Below are positions 248-63,896 of a DNA stretch of 64,000 bases, in pieces. The stretch spans positions 9,486,001-9,550,000 of the forward strand of contig JAWMAR010000008.1 of the NCBI GenBank assembly GCA_036785375.1, read 5' to 3'. Source of the DNA: Leucoraja ocellata. Lineage: Eukaryota. The notes under the pieces are model-generated. The model was not told the DNA's origin, did not search any database, and saw only the letters and a list, made by a program, of their open reading frames with translations. Positions within the stretch are counted from its first letter, which is position 1. The number at the start of each line of letters is the position of its first letter. The position numbers were made by a program, and so were the translations under genes.

Positions 248-376
248 AGATAGACACAAAAATCTGGAGTAACTCAGCGGGACAGGCAGCATCTCTGGCG
301 AGAAGGAATGGGTGACGTTTCGGGTTGAGACCCCTCAGGATTTAAACCAGCATCTGCAGATCCTTCTTACACATAC
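248..376. mobile_element. Penelope-derived inverted mini-element (centre deleted), 11-bp TSD
   Basis: An antisense arm is followed by the sense tail ccagcatctgcagatccttctt. It is flanked by aagggaacaat at 237-247 and 377-387. Confidence 0.8.
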
Positions 377-3080: not shown

Positions 3081-3284
3081 CATAGGAAGGAACTGCAGGC
3101 GCTGGTTTAAACCGAAGATAGACATAAAAAGCTGGAGTAACCCAACGGGACAGGCAGCATTTCTGGAGAGAAGGAATGGGTGACATTTCGGGTTTGAAGA
3201 AAGGTCTTAACCCGAAACATCACCTGCTCCTTCTCTCCAGAGATGCTGCCTGTCCAGCTGAGTTACTCCAGCTTTTTGTGTCTA
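3081..3284. mobile_element. Penelope-derived hairpin mini-element, 17-bp TSD
   Basis: Two inverted arms are joined at the degenerate hammerhead motif. tctattac(a/g)gtatattg occurs at 3064-3080 and 3281-3297. Confidence 0.85.
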
Positions 3285-5060: not shown

Positions 5061-6540
5061 TACAACTCCAACTTCTGCCCATGAATCACGGACTTACAAA
5101 GCACAGAAAAAGGCCAAACATCACTTATACAAATCTCTTTTACATGTACTCACTCCATGGTCTTCCATGCCTTGATAATTAAATTGCACAGTTAATGCAG
5201 GTTACAAAGAAAGGTTATGAAGTACATTTCTACCATTAACTGTTGGGGTTATGGCAGAACAGCACAGATATCAACTCATGCCTTTGTGGCACCAGGTAGC
5301 ACGTGACTTGGAAAAGGCATGAACGCTTTGGCATGTCTGCTGTGTGCACCTACATTTGAAGTACACCCAGCCATGCTAAACTGCCCAAAGCCAATTAAGT
5401 GGTCCTGCAGTGGTAGATCGCTGTCATACAGGAATAATATTTTAGTCTAACCTAGAAAATGGAACTTGGTGTCCTAAATTTAATATTCATTTCCTGCACG
5501 TCATTTTCCGACTGCCAAGAGATTAATCCTCAGATTATTGGAAAGCATGTCAGATTTTATTGAGTCACATTCAAGATTAATGTAATTGCAATGCATGCAA
5601 TTAGCATCGCATAACGCAGCATGTCATGTTCCCTTACGGATGCAAAGGGGCTTTGAATTCTCAGCAGAAATGAGGTTTCTTTTACAAGCTGCCCAATATG
5701 ACATTATTCATTTCAACTCAATTATATTGCCCAGTTAGATAAAATGAAATATTGTAGGCATGCTGCATGTTAAAGTGTCAGTATCTGCCAGTCTAACAGC
5801 TCCGGAAATATGAAATATGAAACAAGCGTTGCTACATTTTGCCACTTGTCCATAATTTGAAGTAAAATTACCATTTAAAAAAGGTACTGCTTTTATTTTT
5901 ATTCATCTCTGTATAAACATTGACTAGAGAGCTCAATGTCAAACACTAGTACATCTGCAGGCAATGTCAGATTAGTAATTGTATTCAGAATAGTATTTCC
6001 CCACCAGATGTTCACCTTTTCGCTGTGAAAATGTTTTATTTATTACTGCCAGATACAGTGCGACATTAATCACAGTCAAAGATTATGACGTCACAGTAAA
6101 GGAGGTGATTGTGTTCAGAAATTACAGAGTTGGGAGGGCATAAAGGCAAGAGCGTTGAGGAGATTAGTGCAACTGGGATTGTGCAGGTTTATACACACTT
6201 TGATAGGATTAGCTAAACTGCATACAAGGGTCAACCAGATCCACTAACACTTAAAGAAACAATGTGGGGACTGGGTGAAGTAATTCATCTTTGATCATTG
6301 GCCCTCACTTGGCACATAAATAGCGACCTTTGATTATATCTCCTCTGCAGGTTTGGTTCATTGACTCTTGCATTCAGTGTTTTTAACTGTACTCCTTCAG
6401 CACCCAAGACAAAATCTGCTTTCAATGTGTGCATTTAATTTAATTTGCTGCAGGAGTTTCTAACATGGCACAATACATAAACGGTTTAAGCTTGCTCTGC
6501 AACCGCAAATTACACACCATGTTAAAGCAATATATTGTTT

Positions 6541-7025
6541 AAGAAGGAACTGCAGATGCTGGAAAATCGAAGGTACACAAAAAAGCTGGAGAAACTCAGC
6601 GGGTGCAGCAGCATCTATGGAGCGAAGGAAATAGGTAACGTTTCGGGCTGAAACCCTTCTTCAGACTGATGGGGGGTGGTGGTAGTGGCGGGGAGAAGAA
6701 AGGAAAAAGGAGGAGAAGGAGCCCGAGGGCTGAGGGAGAGATGGGAAGGAGAGGAGACAGCAAGGGCTAACAGAATTGGGAGAATTCAATGTTCATGCCC
6801 CCAGGATGCAGACTACCCAAACGGAATATGAGGTGCTGTTCCTCCTATTTCCGGTGGTGCTCACTCTGGCCATGGAGGAGGCCCAGGACAGAGAGGTCGG
6901 ATACGGAATGGGAGGGGGAGTTGAAGTGCTGAGCCACCGGGAGGTCAGGTTGGTTAATGCGGACTGAGCGGAGGTGTTCAGCAAAATGATCGCCAAGCCT
7001 ACGCTTGGTCTCACCGATGTAGATC
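6541..7025 (-). mobile_element. 5'-truncated Penelope-like element: GIY-YIG endonuclease C-part plus 3' end, 18-bp TSD
   Basis: YIGETKRRLGDHFAEHLRSV...PVAQHFNSPSH (6845-7025) is a PLE GIY-YIG domain. taaagcaatatattgttt is duplicated at 6523-6540 and 7032-7049. Confidence 0.9.
6637..6664 (-). ncRNA. Minimal hammerhead ribozyme motif in PLE 3' end
   Basis: Minus strand reads CUGAAGA-A-GGG-UUUCAG-CCC-GAAAC-GUU: the catalytic core boxes, a short stem II and a palindromic ACGU stem III. Confidence 0.65.
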
Positions 7026-7319
7026 AATATGTAAAGCAATATATTGTTTGGTTAATTCCGTGATAGTTTGTTTGAAGGAACAGCCATACCACAAATTGCA
7101 AATAGGACAAATACTATGTAATGTAACTTGTTCTTCTGACTGGGCAATTTCAAATTTAACTGACTTCTATTTAACCCAATGAACACAATAGTGTTTTTAA
7201 TTAATTTGATATCCAACCGAAATCTAGAGCAGGAGGTGTTATTTTCAGCATTCCATAAAAAGGCAGGTCCAATTATCTCAAGGACCTGGAAGTAATCTAG
7301 AAAAAGTATACTCCATTTC

Positions 7320-7612: not shown

Positions 7613-7957
7613 ACAAATAAATGAGAACAATGGGGGACCCTGTGGTAGGAGTGTGTCGTCTAATAAGAATAATTGATGGGAAGAAGATGAAGACATCTTC
7701 CATAATCTACAACCCCTCCTGACTCTGTCACCATTGGACCCTTCCCTCCCTCACCAGACTCCAATTGCCAATAAACTTGTCTTCAGGTGGATCCACCTAA
7801 TACTTCCCTGCTCTTGCCATACCTCTCCCCCTCTGTATCCTGGCTCTCTCCCCTCTACTCTTTCAGTCCAGGTGAAGGGTGTTGATCTGAAACACAACTT
7901 TCATTTTCTTCCACAGATGCTGTCTGACCCACTGAGTTATAGAGCCATAGTGTCTTA

Positions 7958-8396
7958 AGGGCGTGTCCCATGAGCATGCGACCTGCATGCGGCAAGTGCG
8001 ACCTAAAGGGCCGGTCCCACCAGCATGCGCCTGCATGCGGCAAGCGCGACCTAACGTGGTTGCTTGAGCCGTACGGCATGCGGCAAGCGCGACCAAACCA
8101 GAAGCGGGAGCCGCACGGAGGTCGAGTGAGTGACATGAGGCGGCTGCGGGCCGCCAGGCCGGTGCCGCGCGGAATTATTAAACTCGGTCAGTTTTTCAGA
8201 GCCCCGCGCGATGTCGGGACCAGCTCCGCACAACTCCATATGGCTTCGGCGATCGAAGTGGGACCGGCCCCGCGAGGCCGTACGGCTTAAGTTACCACAT
8301 TAGGTCGCGCTTGCCGCATGCAGGCACATGCTGGTGGGACCGGCCCTTTAGGTCGCGCATGCCGCATGCAGGTCGCATGCTCGTGGGACAGGCCCT
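7958..8396. mobile_element. PIF/Harbinger-like MITE with tandemly doubled TIRs, TTA TSD
   Basis: Termini AGGGC..GTCCCA / TGGGAC..GCCCT, with TTA at 7955-57 and 8397-99. It interrupts a CR1-type tail (catagtgtcTTActgcgtggaaacaggccc). Confidence 0.85.
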
Positions 8397-8399
8397 TTA

Positions 8400-9051: not shown

Positions 9052-9165
9052 CAAGGAAGATGCTGGAAAAACTCGAAGGTAGACAAAAATGCTGGAGAAA
9101 CTCAGCAGGTGAAGCAGCATCTCGGGCCTCACCCGCTGAGTTTCTCCAGCATTTTTGTCTGCCTT
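9052..9165. mobile_element. Penelope-derived hairpin mini-element (centre deleted)
   Basis: agacaaaaatgctggagaaactcagc ... gctgagtttctccagcatttttgtct inverted arms. Confidence 0.75.
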
Positions 9166-12610: not shown

Positions 12611-12809
12611 AGTCCAACCCATGCAGCTGATTCTTCATTGTTTCCAGAGTTCAAGGCCAGTTAGAAATGCACCATTGCCAGCGATGTCCATATCCCAGTG
12701 GAATAGAAAAATGAGAATAGAATAGAAACGTTCTCCCTGTGACTGTGTGGGTTTTCTCCAGGTGCTCTGGTATCTTCCCACATTCCAAAGACATACAGGT
12801 TTACAAGTT

Positions 12810-13033
12810 GTTCAAGAAGGAACTGCAGATGCTGGAAAATCGAAGGTACACAAAAATGCTGGAGAAACTCAGCGGGTGCAGCAGCATCTATGGAGCGAAG
12901 GAAATAGGTGACGTTTCGGGCCAAAACCCTTCTTCAGACTGATGAAGGGTTTCGGCCCAAAACGTCACCTATTTCCTTCGCTCCATAGATGCTGCTGCAC
13001 CCGCTGAGTTTCTCCAGCATTTTTGTGTACCTT
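12810..13033. mobile_element. Penelope-derived hairpin mini-element, 14-bp TSD, two opposed hammerhead motifs
   Basis: Near-perfect ~95-bp inverted arms. TSD caggtttacaagtt at 12796-12809 and 13034-13047. Confidence 0.9.
12910..12937 (-). ncRNA. Minimal hammerhead ribozyme motif
   Basis: CUGAAGA-A-GGG-UUUUGG-CCC-GAAAC-GUC. The opposed plus-strand copy (12939-12966) has G12>A. Confidence 0.65.
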
Positions 13034-13440
13034 CAGGTTTACAAGTTAATTGGCTTCAGTAAATATGTAAATTGTCCCTAGCGTGTAGGATAGTGTTTGT
13101 GTACAGGGTGATTTCTGGTTGGTGCGTTCTCGGTGGGCCACATTTTATCTCTAAAGTCTAAAGATCCAACTTGAGATTTGAGATAGGCCTGCGGGAAAAA
13201 AAGGTTTTAGTAAGCTCTGTGTCTCTGTTAGAGCCAAAAAGCAGTCGAAATGATACACTCTTAGAATGGTCAGTCACAGGAGCAAAGAATGCATGTTCAG
13301 CAATAAACACTACTCTCCAATGTCACACTCCATCTCTGAACAATCTGGCAATAGCACAACTGGCTGAATGGAAAACATGCAGGACAAAAGTAAAAGTAAA
13401 ATAGGTATCGTCAAAAATACACTGAGAAGTGATTAGTACA

Positions 13441-13563
13441 AGGGTTTCGGCCCGAAACGTTGCCTATTTCCTTCGCTCCATAGATGCTGCTGCACCCGCT
13501 GAGTTTCTCCAGCTTTTTTGTGTAACCTTCGATTCTCCAGCATCTGCAGTTCCCTCTTAAACA
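13441..13563 (+). mobile_element. Single-arm Penelope 3' end, 7-bp TSD
   Basis: Begins inside the hammerhead (agggtttcggcccgaaacgtt). tagtaca occurs at 13434-40 and 13564-70. Confidence 0.8.
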
Positions 13564-17132: not shown

Positions 17133-17356
17133 AGGTAGACAAAAATGCTGGAGAAACTCAGCGGGTGCAGCAGCATCAATGGAGCGAAGGAAATAGGCAA
17201 TGTTTTGGGCCAAAACCCATCTTCAGATCTGAAGAGGGTTTCGGCCTGAAACGTTGCCTATTTCCTTCGCTCCATAGATGCTGCTGCACCCGCTGAGTTT
17301 CTCCAGCACTTTTGTCTACCTTCGATTTTACAGCATCTGCAGTTCCTTCTCAAACA
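17133..17356. mobile_element. Penelope-derived hairpin mini-element with hammerhead motif (17229-17255, +)
   Basis: Inverted arms joined at cttcagatctgaag. The plus strand reads CUGAAGA-GGG-UUUCGG-CCU-GAAAC-GUU. Confidence 0.85.
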
Positions 17357-23156: not shown

Positions 23157-23570
23157 AAAGAAGGTTGGTGAATCTGTGGAATTCTTTGCTACAGAAGACT
23201 ATGGAGGCCAAGTCAGTGGATATTTTTTAGATAGAGAGAGAGAGATTCTTGATTAGTACAGGTGTCAGAGGTTATGGGGAGAAGGCAGGAGAATGGGGTT
23301 TGGAGGAAGAAATAGATCAGCCATGATTGAATGGCGGAGCAAACTTGATGGGCCGGTCTAATTTTACTCCTATTCCTTATGACAATATAAATTTAATTGG
23401 AAAATAGTTGGATTTGGCGCCAGGGAACTTTATTTGCATTTGATAATTAGCCCACGTTATAAGTTCATTAGTTCATAAGTGATAGGAGCTTCAGAATTAG
23501 GCCATTCTGCCATTCAATCTCTCCCTTAACCCCATTCTTCTGCCTTCTCACTATAAACCCTGATACCCAT
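23157..23570. mobile_element. Two CR1 3' fragments in tail-to-tail orientation (23157-23383 +, 23457-23570 -)
   Basis: gtgaatctgtggaattct...gatcagccatgattgaatggc and its reverse complement. Confidence 0.75.
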
Positions 23571-25557
23571 TATATGGAAGAAATTGATCAGATATTTGTT
23601 AAAATATTTTGCAGTGGAATATTACATATTTCAGTAATATGACACCATGCTCAGTAATCAGGAGCAAAATACTACAGTATTTGGATAAAATGTCAAAAAA
23701 AGGAAATATTTAACAAGCCAGGCTGGGACTATGGAGAGAGAACCAGAACCTCAGGTTCATGACATGACATTGCAACCGGGAAAGAAATTGCAAATAAACA
23801 GATTTTCAGATGCAATGAAGGGCATAAGAGGAAGTAAAGTGAGAGTGAAAGAAATTAGATGACAAATAGCTATGATGGTGTAAGTAGATCCTAAAGAGAC
23901 AAATAGGGGATGCATAACTGGCAAATGGAGATGCTCTGAAATCTGAATTCTAAGAAATGAGAGTTGTAGTTTTGTGGAGAGATATAATCACAAAATATTG
24001 AAGATTTATTACAGAAATTCAATAATTTTTTTACATAATTTGGATCTTCAATATTGCCATCACTACATCGGAGATTTACTTTCTCACCTCAAGACTTTAT
24101 CGTTTATCTAATTATATAGAGAATCTTACCAAAAAAGCAAACTATTTCATGAATCATTTCCCATAAAACAGTTTTGAAAGTTTTCTGCCAAACTCTGGAC
24201 ACTTTAGAGGAAAGATTTGATTTTTTTTAATAAGGAATGAGATTTTTTTTTGCCAGGACTTCATTCAGCAGTCACTGTGCTATTTTTAAAATTAACTGGA
24301 TGGCATAAACATGCAAGAGATTTTCAATCCATAAACTAGTAATTTGATTGACAAAGTGTCGTCATTAAACTACAGTTAGAATTCATATATACACAACTCG
24401 GAAAAATAAGTTTTCTGTTTTTTCCTGCATCACCTCTGTGAATTCCAGTTGTGTTACGGCTGAGAACTTGCGTCTTTCATTATTATCTAACAAGATACTG
24501 CCAGAGGGTGCATGTGTATATGTGGGAGGAAGGGGGTGGTGCAGTGGTGATGATGCACGAATGGACAGTTGGGGGCATTAACCACCAAAATCTTTTGCAA
24601 TCCTTATAATTATGCTTAAAAATGTACACGCTGTCCAAGTGCAGTGTTTTATTTTTAAACCATAAGCCATTTCTATGAAAATTATTACCTTCTGAAGCCC
24701 AAGTAATGCATTTAACTGCTGCATTTTGCTGCTGTACACACTCGAGCACATTTAAGCAGCGGGTCGGGTGTTCCATTTTCTCTCTGCAAATGCCAACCAG
24801 TTAATGGTTCATCTACTGTAAATCCGACCATTTAATCTGCTGACATTTTCCAATTTGTAATGCATGACCTGTATGATGCATATGAGGGTGATTATTCCGG
24901 TGAGGAAAGGAATTTCAGTCATTTTTAATAAACGATATTTCTATAGCAACTAGCAAAGCTTAACATTATAAATATTATATCCAGTTTTCTTGTGAAAATG
25001 TTGCCATGTCTGATTAGCTCAAATTGAAAAAATGGAAATTCCAACACTATAAATATAAATGCTCAATAATAATATTGAACAATACCAGAACAGGAACGAA
25101 AGTCCAATAAACTTCAAAGGTATTTTCACTTTCACTATTTGGAATTTGGAATTTTCGATCTATGCGGTGACAAAAATTATTCGTAAAACAACTTATAAAT
25201 GGCATTCAAAAGACTCTTTGAATGTTATTCCTCTTCAGTAAGTTGGCTGTGAAAGACCTTCCCCACATCTTTTTGCAATCAACACCTGGTTGATTTAACG
25301 TGTCTATTTTTACCTCCTGCCCTCTAGTTCTTTCATTGGCAGTGCCCTTCTTGTTGATTGGCATAAATACCTTCCCATCACCTCCCCCTCTGAAAGATGT
25401 ATTACCATATTTTCATGTGAGGGCAGCATCTTCACATTCAGTGACTTACACTCCCAATCTCCACACTGCCACCACCCTCTCATCATTTGCACACGTCCCC
25501 TGCTTTGTATGCTCTCAATTCATAGTTTTTCTCCCAACACTTTCGTAAAATGTCTTA

Positions 25558-34492: not shown

Positions 34493-35944
34493 CCATGCAA
34501 ATGGCGCTAAAATTGTTCTGCTAACACCTATACTCAAATACCATCTCTTCCTCACACATCCCCACACCCAGAGACAGGCACACAGAAACGCAAATCCACC
34601 TCCAACCTTCTGCCCACCTCAATCAATCACCACATACACACCCCTGGGTTATGACTGACTTTCATTCTTGAAAACTGACTGTAACCAAAACCACCCGGCA
34701 ATTTATTTAAATAAAAACCATAGGGCAACCAAGGACCAGTCCTAATGCAGTAATGCAGTGCAACCCTGTAACATATCTCTTTCTGTAGTTAAACTAGGGC
34801 ATTTAGCTCAACTATTCAGGTATGGCTGCAGACAGGTGCCCACCTGGCAGGAGATGTCTACAACCCCGTAACAGCCAGCTAATCCACCCCTCTAGTCGTC
34901 CGAACGTTTGCTTGCATGCAGAGGCTGTATGTAAGTCGGGCGTAGGCAACCTGGGGAGGACCTTCACACAAATCCATAAATAACTCGTGAGGTTGGAATT
35001 GTAGTTGTTGCTCATCGTACAAAATACCCTATTTTTCTCTGAGGTCGAGGATGTCAAAAATCCGAGGCTAGTCCAACTGACAAGGGGGAACCCTCTCTTG
35101 TGCTCAGGGCCAACCAGACCAGGCTGGAGGATAACAGATTTGCAGCGGGTGATCCCCAAGATAATGGTGCCACTGAATTATTAATCTCTGCAGTGTGCAA
35201 GTAACTTGCAGACTTTCATCATCCCTCGGCCCCTTATTAAAATGACTGTTCTGTCTAAAAGAATCAGAATATCTGCTGACTGCTTTTTGCCAAAGGGCAA
35301 TGAAAGCAGCAATATTATTCCATTGCTTGCCTACTTCGTACTGCAGTGTCTCGGCAGAGAAACCCATCCCCCACCCCAACGACAAACACAAGGGCATGGA
35401 GAAGACAGGGGGACAGAAGCAGCGGGAGTCTCTGAGGCCACTACAATGGACCGGACGAACAATGACCTGTATCATGGTGCTTTAGACCAGTAATTTAGAT
35501 ACCAACAGCATAAGAGCAGAAGGCAACAAGTTAGGGATGTCAGGGGTTATGAGGAGAAGGCAGGAGAATGGGGTTAAGAGGGAAAGATTATTGAATGGCG
35601 GAGTAGACTTGATGGACTAAATGGCCTAATTCTGCTCCTATCATTTATGAAATTATGTTAAAGGAGTGCACTGCATTTGGACTGGCAGCCACACTAATCA
35701 GCTCCAGAGGGGGAAAAAATATAAGGTGCTGGCTTGCTGGATGGAAGATCCCTGGGGAAATCAGATAGAAAACCCTGTTAGGGAAGCTTTCAGGAGAATG
35801 CTCGTGTGCTGCACAATAAAATGCTGGGCATGTTGCCTGACCTGTCAAACGGACTGCACTAGATATCTGCGAGCATGTCAGTCTGTATCCACATATGTGG
35901 GACCAAGAGTGCATCACACTGAAGGTTGTTCATGTTTTGGCGCT

Positions 35945-36395
35945 CATAAGTCATAAGTGACAGGAGTAGAATTAGGCCATTCGGCTCATCAAGTCTACTC
36001 CGCCATTCAATCATAGCTGATCTCTCTCTCCCTCCTTACTCCATTCTCCTGCCTTCTCCCCACAACCTCTGACACCTATACTAATCATAAAACCTTCAAT
36101 CTATCTATCTATCTCTGCCTTAAAAATATCACCTGACTTGGTCACCACAGCCTTGTGTGGCAAAGAACTCCACAGATTCACCACCCTCTGACTAAAGACA
36201 TTTCTCCGCATCTCCTTCCTAAAAGAACGTCCTTTAATTCTGTGGCTATAACCCCTAGTCCTAGACTCTCCCACTAGTGGAAATATCCTCTCCACATCCA
36301 CTCTATCCAAGCCTTTCACTATTCTGCATGTTTCAATGAGGTCCCCTCTCATTCTTCTAAACTCCAGCCAGTACAGGCTCAATTCCGACAATCAT
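35945..36395 (-). mobile_element. CR1 3' fragment
   Basis: LYWLEFRRMRGDLIETCRIVKGLDRVD...SRTRG...SQRVVNLWSSLP. Confidence 0.9.
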
Positions 36396-40108: not shown

Positions 40109-40261
40109 GATAGACACAAAAAGCTGGAGTAACTCAGTGGGACAGGCAGCATTTCTGGAGAGAAGGAATGGATGACGTTTCAGGGTCACGGTCAAAGTCT
40201 GAAGAATGGACTTTTTGTGTCGATCTTCGGTTTAAACCAGCATCTGCAGTTCCTTCCTACA
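40109..40261. mobile_element. Penelope-derived inverted mini-element, 15-bp TSD
   Basis: catcaagaaaatgta at 40094-40108 and 40262-40276. Confidence 0.85.
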
Positions 40262-43138: not shown

Positions 43139-43267
43139 NNNNNNNNNNNNNNNNNNNNNNNNNNNNNNNNNNNNNNNNNNNNNNNNNNNNNNNNNNNNNN
43201 NNNNNNNNNNNNNNNNNNNNNNNNNNNNNNNNNNNNNNNNNNNNNNNNNNNNNNNNNNNNNNNNNNN
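43139..43267. other. Assembly gap (129 N)
   Basis: Run of N. Confidence 1.
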
Positions 43268-59304: not shown

Positions 59305-59875
59305 TCTTTTAGACTTTAGAGATAGAGCACGGAAACAGCCCATTCGTCCCACCAATTCCATGCCGAACACTGATCACCCCGTACACTAATACTATCCAAC
59401 ACACTAGGGACAATTTACAATTTTACTGAAGCCCATTCTACAATTCTACAAGCCTGTAGATCTTTGAAGTGTGGGAGGAAACCGGGACACCCGGTGGCGC
59501 AGGGGTAGAGTTGTTGCCCTACAGCTCTTGCGACGCTGGAGATCCGGGTTCGATCCCGACTACGGGTGCTGTCTGTATGGAGTTTGTATGTTCTCCCCGT
59601 GACCGCGTTGGTTTTCGCTGAGTTCTTCAGTTTACCTCCACACTACAAGGACATACAGGTTTGTAGGTTAGTTGGCTTGGTGTATGTGTAAATTGTCCCT
59701 AGCGTGCGTAGGATAGCGTTAATGTGCCGGGATCGCTGGTCGGCGTGGACTCGGTAAAACCAAAGGGCCTGTTTCTGCAATGTGTCTCTAAACTAAACTA
59801 AAAACCCACAAGGTCACATGGAGAACGTAAAAAAATTAAATATAGACAGCACCCATGATCCGAATAGAACCCGGG
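59305..59875. mobile_element. HE1 SINE (-) interrupted by HE1 SINE (+, 59492-59802)
   Basis: The minus copy breaks at gggacacccgg and resumes at aaaacccacaaggtcac after the plus copy's (AAACT)n tail. Confidence 0.85.
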
Positions 59876-63018: not shown

Positions 63019-63896
63019 AGGGGGGTTGCACGGAAGGTCACTGGGTCATAGGACTCGACACATGGAGCCGCTAAATCCAACTGGAAGACATCCGTCACTT
63101 CCGGTATATGGTATTAATATGTTATTAAACGCGTACTTTCCTACCTGTTAAAAACCGCCAAAATGTTGAATTTTTGCGCTGAAAAAAATTGTGGGAGTCG
63201 GGGTAAGTGTGAGAGACATGTATCCAACTTCAGAATTCCAAAAGTGAAGCGAAATGAAGATATAGAGAAGCGAGAACTGAAGGGACTACAGCAGCTAAAG
63301 TGCTTGGTAAACATTGAAAATATTGGGAATTATCGCGTTTGCTCACTGCATTTCATCAAGTAATGCATTATTTGTGTTTTTTCTTAATTCCTTTGGTATC
63401 TAAAAATTCTCAGAAGTGATAAATCTGGCTGTAAAGTTTTCTTCAGGTGCGTTTTCATTTTGTATGTAAAAACGCACGAGAACCATGGGCGATTTAAAGA
63501 AATTACAGCCAGATTTATCACTTCTGAAACTTTTTAGGTGCCAAAGGAATCAAGAAAAAACACAAATAATGCCTTACTTGATGAAATACAGTGAGCAAAC
63601 AGCCAATGTTCGCCAAGCACTCTGGCTGTTGTTGTCCCCTTCAGCTCTCGTTTCTATCTACCGTCATTTCTCCTCACTTTTGGAATTCTGAAGTATGCTA
63701 AATGTCTCTCATGCTTATCCCGATTGCCATAATTATTTACAGCGCAAAAATTGACAATTTCAGCGGGTTTTAACAGGCCCGCTACGCTGGAAACAATGGT
63801 AAGTGCGTACCTGCCGTACATCGCGTGTAATCCATTTGGAGTAGCGTAGCAACAGTACGGGTCATGGGTCGTGACCCGACTGCCGTGAACCTCCCT
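63019..63896. mobile_element. Palindromic non-autonomous DNA transposon, ISL2EU/Harbinger-related, AT TSD
   Basis: AT|AGGG..GTT.CACGG ... CCGTGAACCTCCCT|AT. Arms ~63140-63440 and ~63495-63778 are inverted copies. Confidence 0.75.
63163..63359 (+). pseudogene. THAP zinc-finger exon remnant of transposase (inverted copy at 63578-63758)
   Basis: MLNFCAEKNC...FRIPKV...CLVNI...RVCSLHFI fits the C-x4-C / P / (W) / CSxHF THAP signature and is followed by GTAA. Confidence 0.75.

Follow-up and report, generated by a model that had tools for sequence, protein, structure and literature searches.

Does the inverted repeat at 12810-13033 of a 64,000-nucleotide stretch of the Leucoraja ocellata genome (the window, contig JAWMAR010000008.1) belong to a lineage of hairpins that is copied as such, or was it made anew when a Penelope-like element (PLE) inserted? 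The first-pass annotation listed it among six inserts centred on back-to-back hammerhead ribozymes and offered both readings, i.e., a non-autonomous, retrozyme/MITE-like lineage or a stereotyped by-product of PLE integration.

A Penelope-derived hairpin with its own target site duplication

The insert is a 224-bp hairpin with 93% complementary arms (12833-12937 and 12939-13043), a folding energy of -186 kcal/mol (z -27.7) and an exact 14-bp target site duplication (TSD), in agreement with its earlier description as a hairpin with a TSD of its own. As 69 other flank pairs of the host SINE in our sample carry this 14-mer only once, the TSD is a true duplication. The features of the locus are as follows:

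12796..12809, + strand: left TSD, 14 bp, within the host SINE (flank comparison)
12810..12841, - strand: tail of about 32 nt, present on the complete arm only
12810..12937, - strand: pLTR arm in full, equivalent to about 6-133 of the 3946-bp parent unit (its 5' UTR)
12910..12937, - strand: hammerhead motif, core letters all intact (CUGAAGA and GAAAC-GUC), stem II of 4 bp, stem I of 2 bp only
12934..12942, no strand: junction on the element's own micro-palindrome TCAG-A-CTGA
12939..13033, + strand: short arm without tail; hammerhead core with G12A
13034..13047, + strand: right TSD

In the right arm, the U of CUGAUGA is supplied by upstream letters of the element, and 53 loci share exactly this junction. 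Three further hairpins (L307, L309 and L255) are independent insertions at nearly the same host-SINE site as 12796-12809; the SINE itself is abundant (about 140 flank matches in 1.26 Mb) and a target preference is possible. A second copy of the window region, with an identical GIY-YIG piece and the same junction, lies at G000 C731:689379 and 694918, and is either a duplicate or a second haplotype; several other loci are paired likewise.

Related inserts in the window are:

248..376: head-to-head insert of non-overlapping arms (antisense body and sense tail only), 11-bp TSD, no hairpin
3081..3284: older-subfamily hairpin with an asymmetric junction and without an intact core; 17-bp TSD, one mismatch
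6541..7025, - strand: 5'-truncated PLE copy with GIY-YIG remnant, 3' UTR and pLTR with tail
9052..9165: hairpin with 40-bp stem, lacking both the motif and a clean TSD; the join lies downstream of the hammerhead
13440..13563, + strand: solo pLTR stub, 97% identity to the intact unit, 7-bp TSD
17133..17356: young-subfamily hairpin, tail at right, no clean TSD; one hammerhead motif match
40109..40261: head-to-head insert with 25-nt filler, about 19 nt of arm overlap and 15-bp TSD

The four TSDs mentioned earlier for the inverted inserts are all present (at 248-376, 3081-3284, 12810 and 40109-40261), whereas the central back-to-back hammerheads are found at 3081, 12810 and 17133 and had to be given up for 248, 9052 and 40109. 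Intact cores number one at 12810 (- strand), one motif match at 17133 and none at the other four, and two intact cores at one locus were seen in none of the six. The dsRNA of about 95 bp predicted for these inserts is not expected at 248-376 or 40109-40261, because their arms barely overlap (longest helix 5-8 bp), and survives as a 90-bp helix for hairpins of the 12810 type. The link of the repeat to a GIY-YIG frame is real, as the copy at 6541-7025 is 86% identical to the intact unit, has an 18-bp TSD (6523-6540 and 7032-7049) and carries YIGETKRR in its frame at 6845-7051 (- strand), but this frame is a fragment and not a whole ORF. The 59-aa fragment itself gave no Pfam match, and its longer relatives match Pfam GIY-YIG below the cut-off.

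Elsewhere in the window there are two unrelated MITE-like inverted-repeat elements (7957-8397 and 63144-63777, with 121-nt and 141-nt arms), other common repeats placed as inverted pairs (35538-36074, 23246-23582 and 59544-59874) and a run of 129 N (43139-43267).

The parent element and its larger inverted copies

Searching with the N-terminal piece of a relative led to long open frames within a 3946-bp unit that occurs in tandem or partial tandem. It starts with TCAGTCTGAAG, followed by the 135-nt arm, and a 1221-aa frame begins about 35 nt past that arm. Its matches to RVT_1 (E 1.5e-6) and to GIY-YIG (E 0.013) fall short of the Pfam cut-offs. Among 108 longer homologs most carry RT and PF26215 and some carry GIY-YIG; a bamboo-shark protein is 64% identical over half of the query. 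A single ORF with RT plus GIY-YIG at its C-terminus is thus present, as in EN+ PLEs. Each hairpin arm corresponds to the first 100-135 nt of the unit, just upstream of the RT/GIY-YIG frame, and since the tandem unit carries the arm at its start, ahead of the frame, the arm is the pLTR, which forms the 3' end of one insertion and serves as 5' UTR for the unit that follows. Tandem units (L291 and L292 at G000 C8:5606419-5614529, and L293) and partial tandems (L295-L298) are 98.5-99.8% alike with frames of about 1233 codons, and the family looks recently active; candidates number 4381 for the N-terminal piece and 103543 for the GIY-YIG piece. Ahead of its GIY-YIG region the protein has a linker of the form C-X4-C-X2-C, and a CX2-5CxxC linker between RT and endonuclease is described as a mark of Neptune/Nematis (PMC8557442), which, judged from the protein sequence, points to a place for the parent in the Neptune group.

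The same architecture exists on a much larger scale. Locus L294 (1845-8365) is a 6.5-kb palindrome whose 3.2-kb arms are identical at 3237 of 3240 positions, with a one-armed tail and a 16-bp TSD; the arms stop at most 2 nt apart, inside the ORF, around a short loop. Four more loci (L264, L269, L278 and L287) are likewise head-to-head, so the hairpins are the short end of a size continuum that reaches up to copies with kilobase arms. Long copies without an inversion have their ends at +98 to +102 or near +135, where hairpin arms end too, and for this reason +98 to +102 is a genuine end of ordinary insertions.

Abundance and orientation of the pairs

In 1.064 Mb of the 3.44-Gb genome (100 hand-picked stretches on large contigs plus the window) we found 489 fragments of the PLE end, and neighbouring fragments were head-to-head in 96 cases vs 12, 6 and 6 for the other orientations. 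A looser threshold applied to 1.264 Mb gave 132 vs 13, 5 and 20, i.e., about 100 head-to-head pairs per Mb. An exact junction pattern returned 1984 matches genome-wide vs 0 for its reversed control, and TSDs of at least 9 bp bracket 42 of 127 pairs vs 2 of 501 mismatched controls, with hairpin TSDs running from about 9 to 19 bp. The earlier observation that one arm is complete and the other lacks the tail applies broadly, the tail being on one arm in 87 of 131 sampled pairs, on neither in 27, unclear in 10 and on both in 7, the last a noisy count that includes older copies. Pairwise junction mapping of old copies is similarly noisy, and the junction counts given below come from HMM ends and exact patterns.

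Hairpins arise de novo at each insertion, by all appearances

If hairpins were copied as units, their two sides should carry side-specific variants and a fixed polarity. From 95 young hairpin loci, none of them two-tailed, we retained 65 with a tail and a short arm and, after removal of 6 paralogs and 9 members of another subfamily, 50 independent ones. The arms resemble each other within loci (non-CpG distance 0.028 vs 0.052 between loci), a closeness reached by 0 of 2000 shuffles; a subfamily variant sits on both arms in 19 loci (7.6 expected), and rare variants are common to both arms in 6 cases (0.28 expected). Arms are discordant at the main site pair in 4 of these 50 hairpins and in 2 of the 50 listed loci of the stem II set, and the nearest neighbour of an arm is its own locus in 7 of 50, another in 18 and tied in 25, an uninformative split. 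There was no structure separating tail sides from short sides (195 of 500 permutations), and a side bias was seen at one site alone, the junction base, in a sample selected in part for resemblance to the query.

Taking the central junction base as the sign of the arm that is collinear with the element, tails are on either side equally often: 18:18 among the first 50 of 1984 loci (14 with no or unclear tails) and 14:15 among the first 30 of 2104 loci (one pair paralogous), without a two-tailed case in either set. The 29 loci most similar to the query are biased towards its polarity and were left out of these counts. For the focal junction type (CTGATGA) the counts are skewed, 17:5 (p 0.017); one locus of this type appears to have two tails, and its second arm switches subfamily. 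As neither fixed polarity nor side-specific variants are seen, a master hairpin is without support, and whole-unit copying was not found by side structure or by the one asymmetric junction searched (3 loci, of which two are paralogs and the third belongs to another subtype).

A ribozyme-bearing hairpin lineage copied as a unit by the PLE RT would account for stereotyped 224-bp copies, each with its own TSD, and for the 53 loci with the exact focal junction, and animal retrozymes are reported to derive from pLTRs (bioRxiv 10.64898/2026.07.22.740005). Yet both polarities occur, side-specific variants are confined to the junction base, junction types are many (of 131 sampled pairs, only 13 have a symmetric junction at TCAG-W-CTGA), the commonest one destroys both cores, the one asymmetric junction searched has just 3 loci and kilobase versions exist, and we regard such a lineage as highly improbable, even if single hairpins may rarely be re-copied. 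The comparison of left and right arms that had been proposed as a check thus comes out on the de novo side, and the alternative suggestion, a stereotyped by-product of PLE integration, is the one that stands. Very probably, then, the hairpins arise anew at each insertion, and the stubs are likely dead.

Junctions follow self-complementary words

Exact patterns of the young subfamily place 2503 junctions genome-wide on the 7+7 palindrome of stem II vs 768 at TCAG-W-CTGA, and a stem II junction leaves neither arm with a CUGA box. Of 568 junctions, the first 50 include 24 at AACGTT and 5 at the GC of the predicted cut; of 297, the first 50 include 12-16 at a GC and 6 at a TA. All of these words are self-complementary in the element. 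Scaling gives about 57 junctions at the predicted cut and about 70-95 at a control GC word 13 nt downstream of it, so that no excess at the cut site was found for symmetric junctions of the young subfamily. Because the sites are self-complementary words and the cut-site GC does not exceed its control, we conclude that the junctions follow microhomology and not cleavage. The junctions fall on words along the whole arm, and the suggestion that RT folds back at the ribozyme does not agree with the commonest junction of the young subfamily, which deletes the CUGA box.

It could still be argued that hammerhead self-cleavage sets the RNA 5' end and hence the fold point, given that neither the core letters nor stem II have been lost in the intact family and that some junctions lie exactly on the predicted cut. 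Against this stand the richer control word, the 5' ends, most of which lie upstream of the cut, and a stem I that never exceeds 2 bp in the 24 copies with an intact core, where 4-5 bp are published, and this explanation is the least credible of those we weighed, with next to no chance of being correct.

Among 80 young-type copies, 31 start at -10 to +8, 11 run far upstream and 3 start at 31-36; 20 of the 31 are solo copies (of these 20, about six run on upstream as diverged sequence), and solo copies and hairpin arms accumulate 5' ends at one and the same position. TCAGTC resembles the initiator consensus. The Penelope of D. virilis is reported to have an internal promoter (PMC2377424), and we infer a transcription start at TCAGTC.

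Shorter junctions might also be secondary, i.e., a full-length hairpin inserts and mirrored words are later joined by deletion. Self-complementary words are direct repeats across a palindrome, and palindromes favour deletions between such repeats. However, the hairpins with short junctions count the youngest subtype among them, whose arms show 0-1 differences and whose TSDs are intact, and in unmutated copies stem II junctions are three times as frequent as those at the CUGA box, all of which makes this a very unlikely general origin.

Two further arrangements were seen near these ends. Short head-to-tail repeats of the arm's first 17-35 nt, some ending near the predicted cut, occur in L143, L139, L178 and L316 and are possible template jumps at the RNA 5' end. 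In L330, L318, L170 and L194 the second arm is only about 11-16 nt long, and in two of these a 12-13 bp TSD with letters in common with the arm directly follows it.

A proposed route with two cDNAs on one RNA

We consider that the hairpins are probably the shortest head-to-head insertions of an abundant PLE, in which two cDNAs made on one RNA are joined by microhomology. Transcription would start at TCAGTC, and upstream of the sites where RT starts the monomer RNA would leave no more than about 130 nt. Both cut target strands would each prime a cDNA on the same RNA, reverse transcription beginning at about +135 on one strand and at about +100 on the other, and both cDNAs would be extended in the direction of the RNA 5' end and would pair at whichever available word is best (7+7 nt in stem II, 4+4 nt at TCAG-W-CTGA, AACGTT, GC or TA), with flaps trimmed. 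The central mismatch could be resolved either way, leaving tail side and junction base independent. From such a route would follow the one-sided tail, the even polarity, the shared variants, the zero-loop junctions and the tail-only arm at 248-376. The PAc protein (from Poseidon of Anolis carolinensis) is reported to cut and extend both strands in vitro, with two start sites that bracket the tail (PMC11167929). The 17:5 polarity of the focal junction type speaks against this route, as a share of fold-back events would produce such a bias.

The published alternative is self-priming, proposed for the Adineta Penelope palindromes (PMC3846280), where the cDNA folds back and copies itself; an endonuclease, whose part in tail resolution has been suggested (PMC8557442), would then trim the tail from a random end. 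It would explain rare variants common to both arms, the biased junction class and the short loop at the L294 junction, and the fold-back at the stem II junction is stable within one strand (-4.0 kcal/mol). The energy of a 3'-paired fold-back is nevertheless positive at six of seven ends tested, and the zero-loop junctions at AACGTT, GC and TA, present in the youngest copies, cannot come from one strand folding at its centre. Self-priming also leaves the non-overlapping arms at 248-376 and the end of the short arm, which is where ordinary copies end, without an explanation, and even polarity in two large classes requires extra, symmetric trimming. We therefore think it rather unlikely as the main source of the hairpins.

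For the route with two cDNAs several qualifications apply. The short loop of L294 fits a fold-back or a shared RNA end equally well, some symmetric junctions could have formed later by deletion between mirrored words, and arm concordance could come partly from gene conversion. A stricter version, in which a protein dimer primes both target strands at two fixed RNA sites and the young hairpins record a PLE integration intermediate, is to us evenly balanced between true and false.

The hammerhead motif

The intact family keeps the core letters, stem II and palindromic stem III of a minimal type I hammerhead, with a stem II of at least 4 bp in 16 of 24 intact-core copies; stem I has no more than 2 contiguous pairs in any of the 24. 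Minimal hammerheads are described as having a stem I of 4-5 bp and cleaving weakly even as dimers (PMC4209133). No Rfam hammerhead match was found in the window at E <= 1. The only Rfam matches were to miRNAs, below threshold and caused by the hairpin shape. Folding of a hairpin transcript buries the motif at 12910-12937 inside the long, 90-bp helix, with the second motif on the other strand. PAc hammerhead mutants reportedly still insert (PMC11167929), and we infer that the hammerhead is an inherited passenger here, even if there may be ribozyme activity in the parent RNA, perhaps assisted by protein.

Comparison with known systems and implications

The layout (inverted pLTR, junction palindrome, tail and TSD) is already known for PLEs. 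Complex EN+ PLE insertions with an inverted 5'-truncated pLTR, a one-sided 30-40 bp tail and a TSD have been described (PMC3846280, PMC8557442, PMC2377424), and inverted 5'-truncated skate copies have the same one-sided 30-40 bp tail and TSD. Like Adineta Pen2a and D. virilis Penelope, the skate family has head-to-head arms, a junction palindrome, a one-armed tail, a single TSD and a hammerhead in the pLTR; unlike them, most of its copies are 130-220 bp long, without an ORF, and occur at about 100 per Mb. The junction spectrum and the even polarity argue against the self-priming model offered for Adineta Pen2a. PAc shares the pLTR 5' of the ORF, two ends about 35 nt apart and an apparently dispensable hammerhead (PMC11167929). 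It differs in that its ORF is reported to start inside the hammerhead, whereas the first skate ATG is about 35 nt past the tail, and in that the skate protein has the C-X4-C-X2-C linker.

With the minimal metazoan PLE hammerheads (PMC4209133) the skate motif shares the CUGANGA and GAAA core and a loopless palindromic stem III, but its stem I has 2 bp only. Opposite-strand hammerhead pairs 100-700 bp apart have been noted in PLEs in the same source. The two skate motifs cannot form a tandem dimer, because they are on opposite strands and each pairs with the complement of the other. Non-LTR retrozymes (bioRxiv 10.64898/2026.07.22.740005) are likewise non-coding, derived from pLTRs and hammerhead-bearing; they are reported as head-to-tail arrays with one hammerhead per unit, whereas the skate inserts are head-to-head and often coreless, adjacent pairs being head-to-head in 132 cases vs 25 on the same strand.

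A MITE has terminal inverted repeats at both ends and a TSD of fixed length; the skate insert has an unpaired tail at one end and TSDs of variable length. In L1 twin priming two primers on one RNA give a 5' inversion, a microhomology join and one TSD, which resembles the shape of 248-376, but most skate arms have an overlap of 50-95 nt, with a fixed position for the second start.

A literature search that covered sources other than subscription journals, Repbase, Dfam and supplements returned neither a prior report of such hairpins in cartilaginous fish nor a two-cDNA annealing model for PLEs. Added here are a ranked junction spectrum, a polarity test, a negative control for the cut site and an intact parent. 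The later steps of PLE insertion are described as unvalidated (PMC11167929), and thousands of near-identical junctions together with intact parents provide a natural record of how PLEs likely insert, in which the two insertion models are separable by counting and a simple assay. At about 100 inverted pairs per Mb, the family is also a possible large source of dsRNA, if transcribed. If the route with two cDNAs is true, two-strand priming would replace the published self-priming model for PLE palindromes, the RNA would start at an initiator just before the hammerhead, and the palindromic stems of the hammerhead would act as DNA annealing sites and not as a ribozyme.
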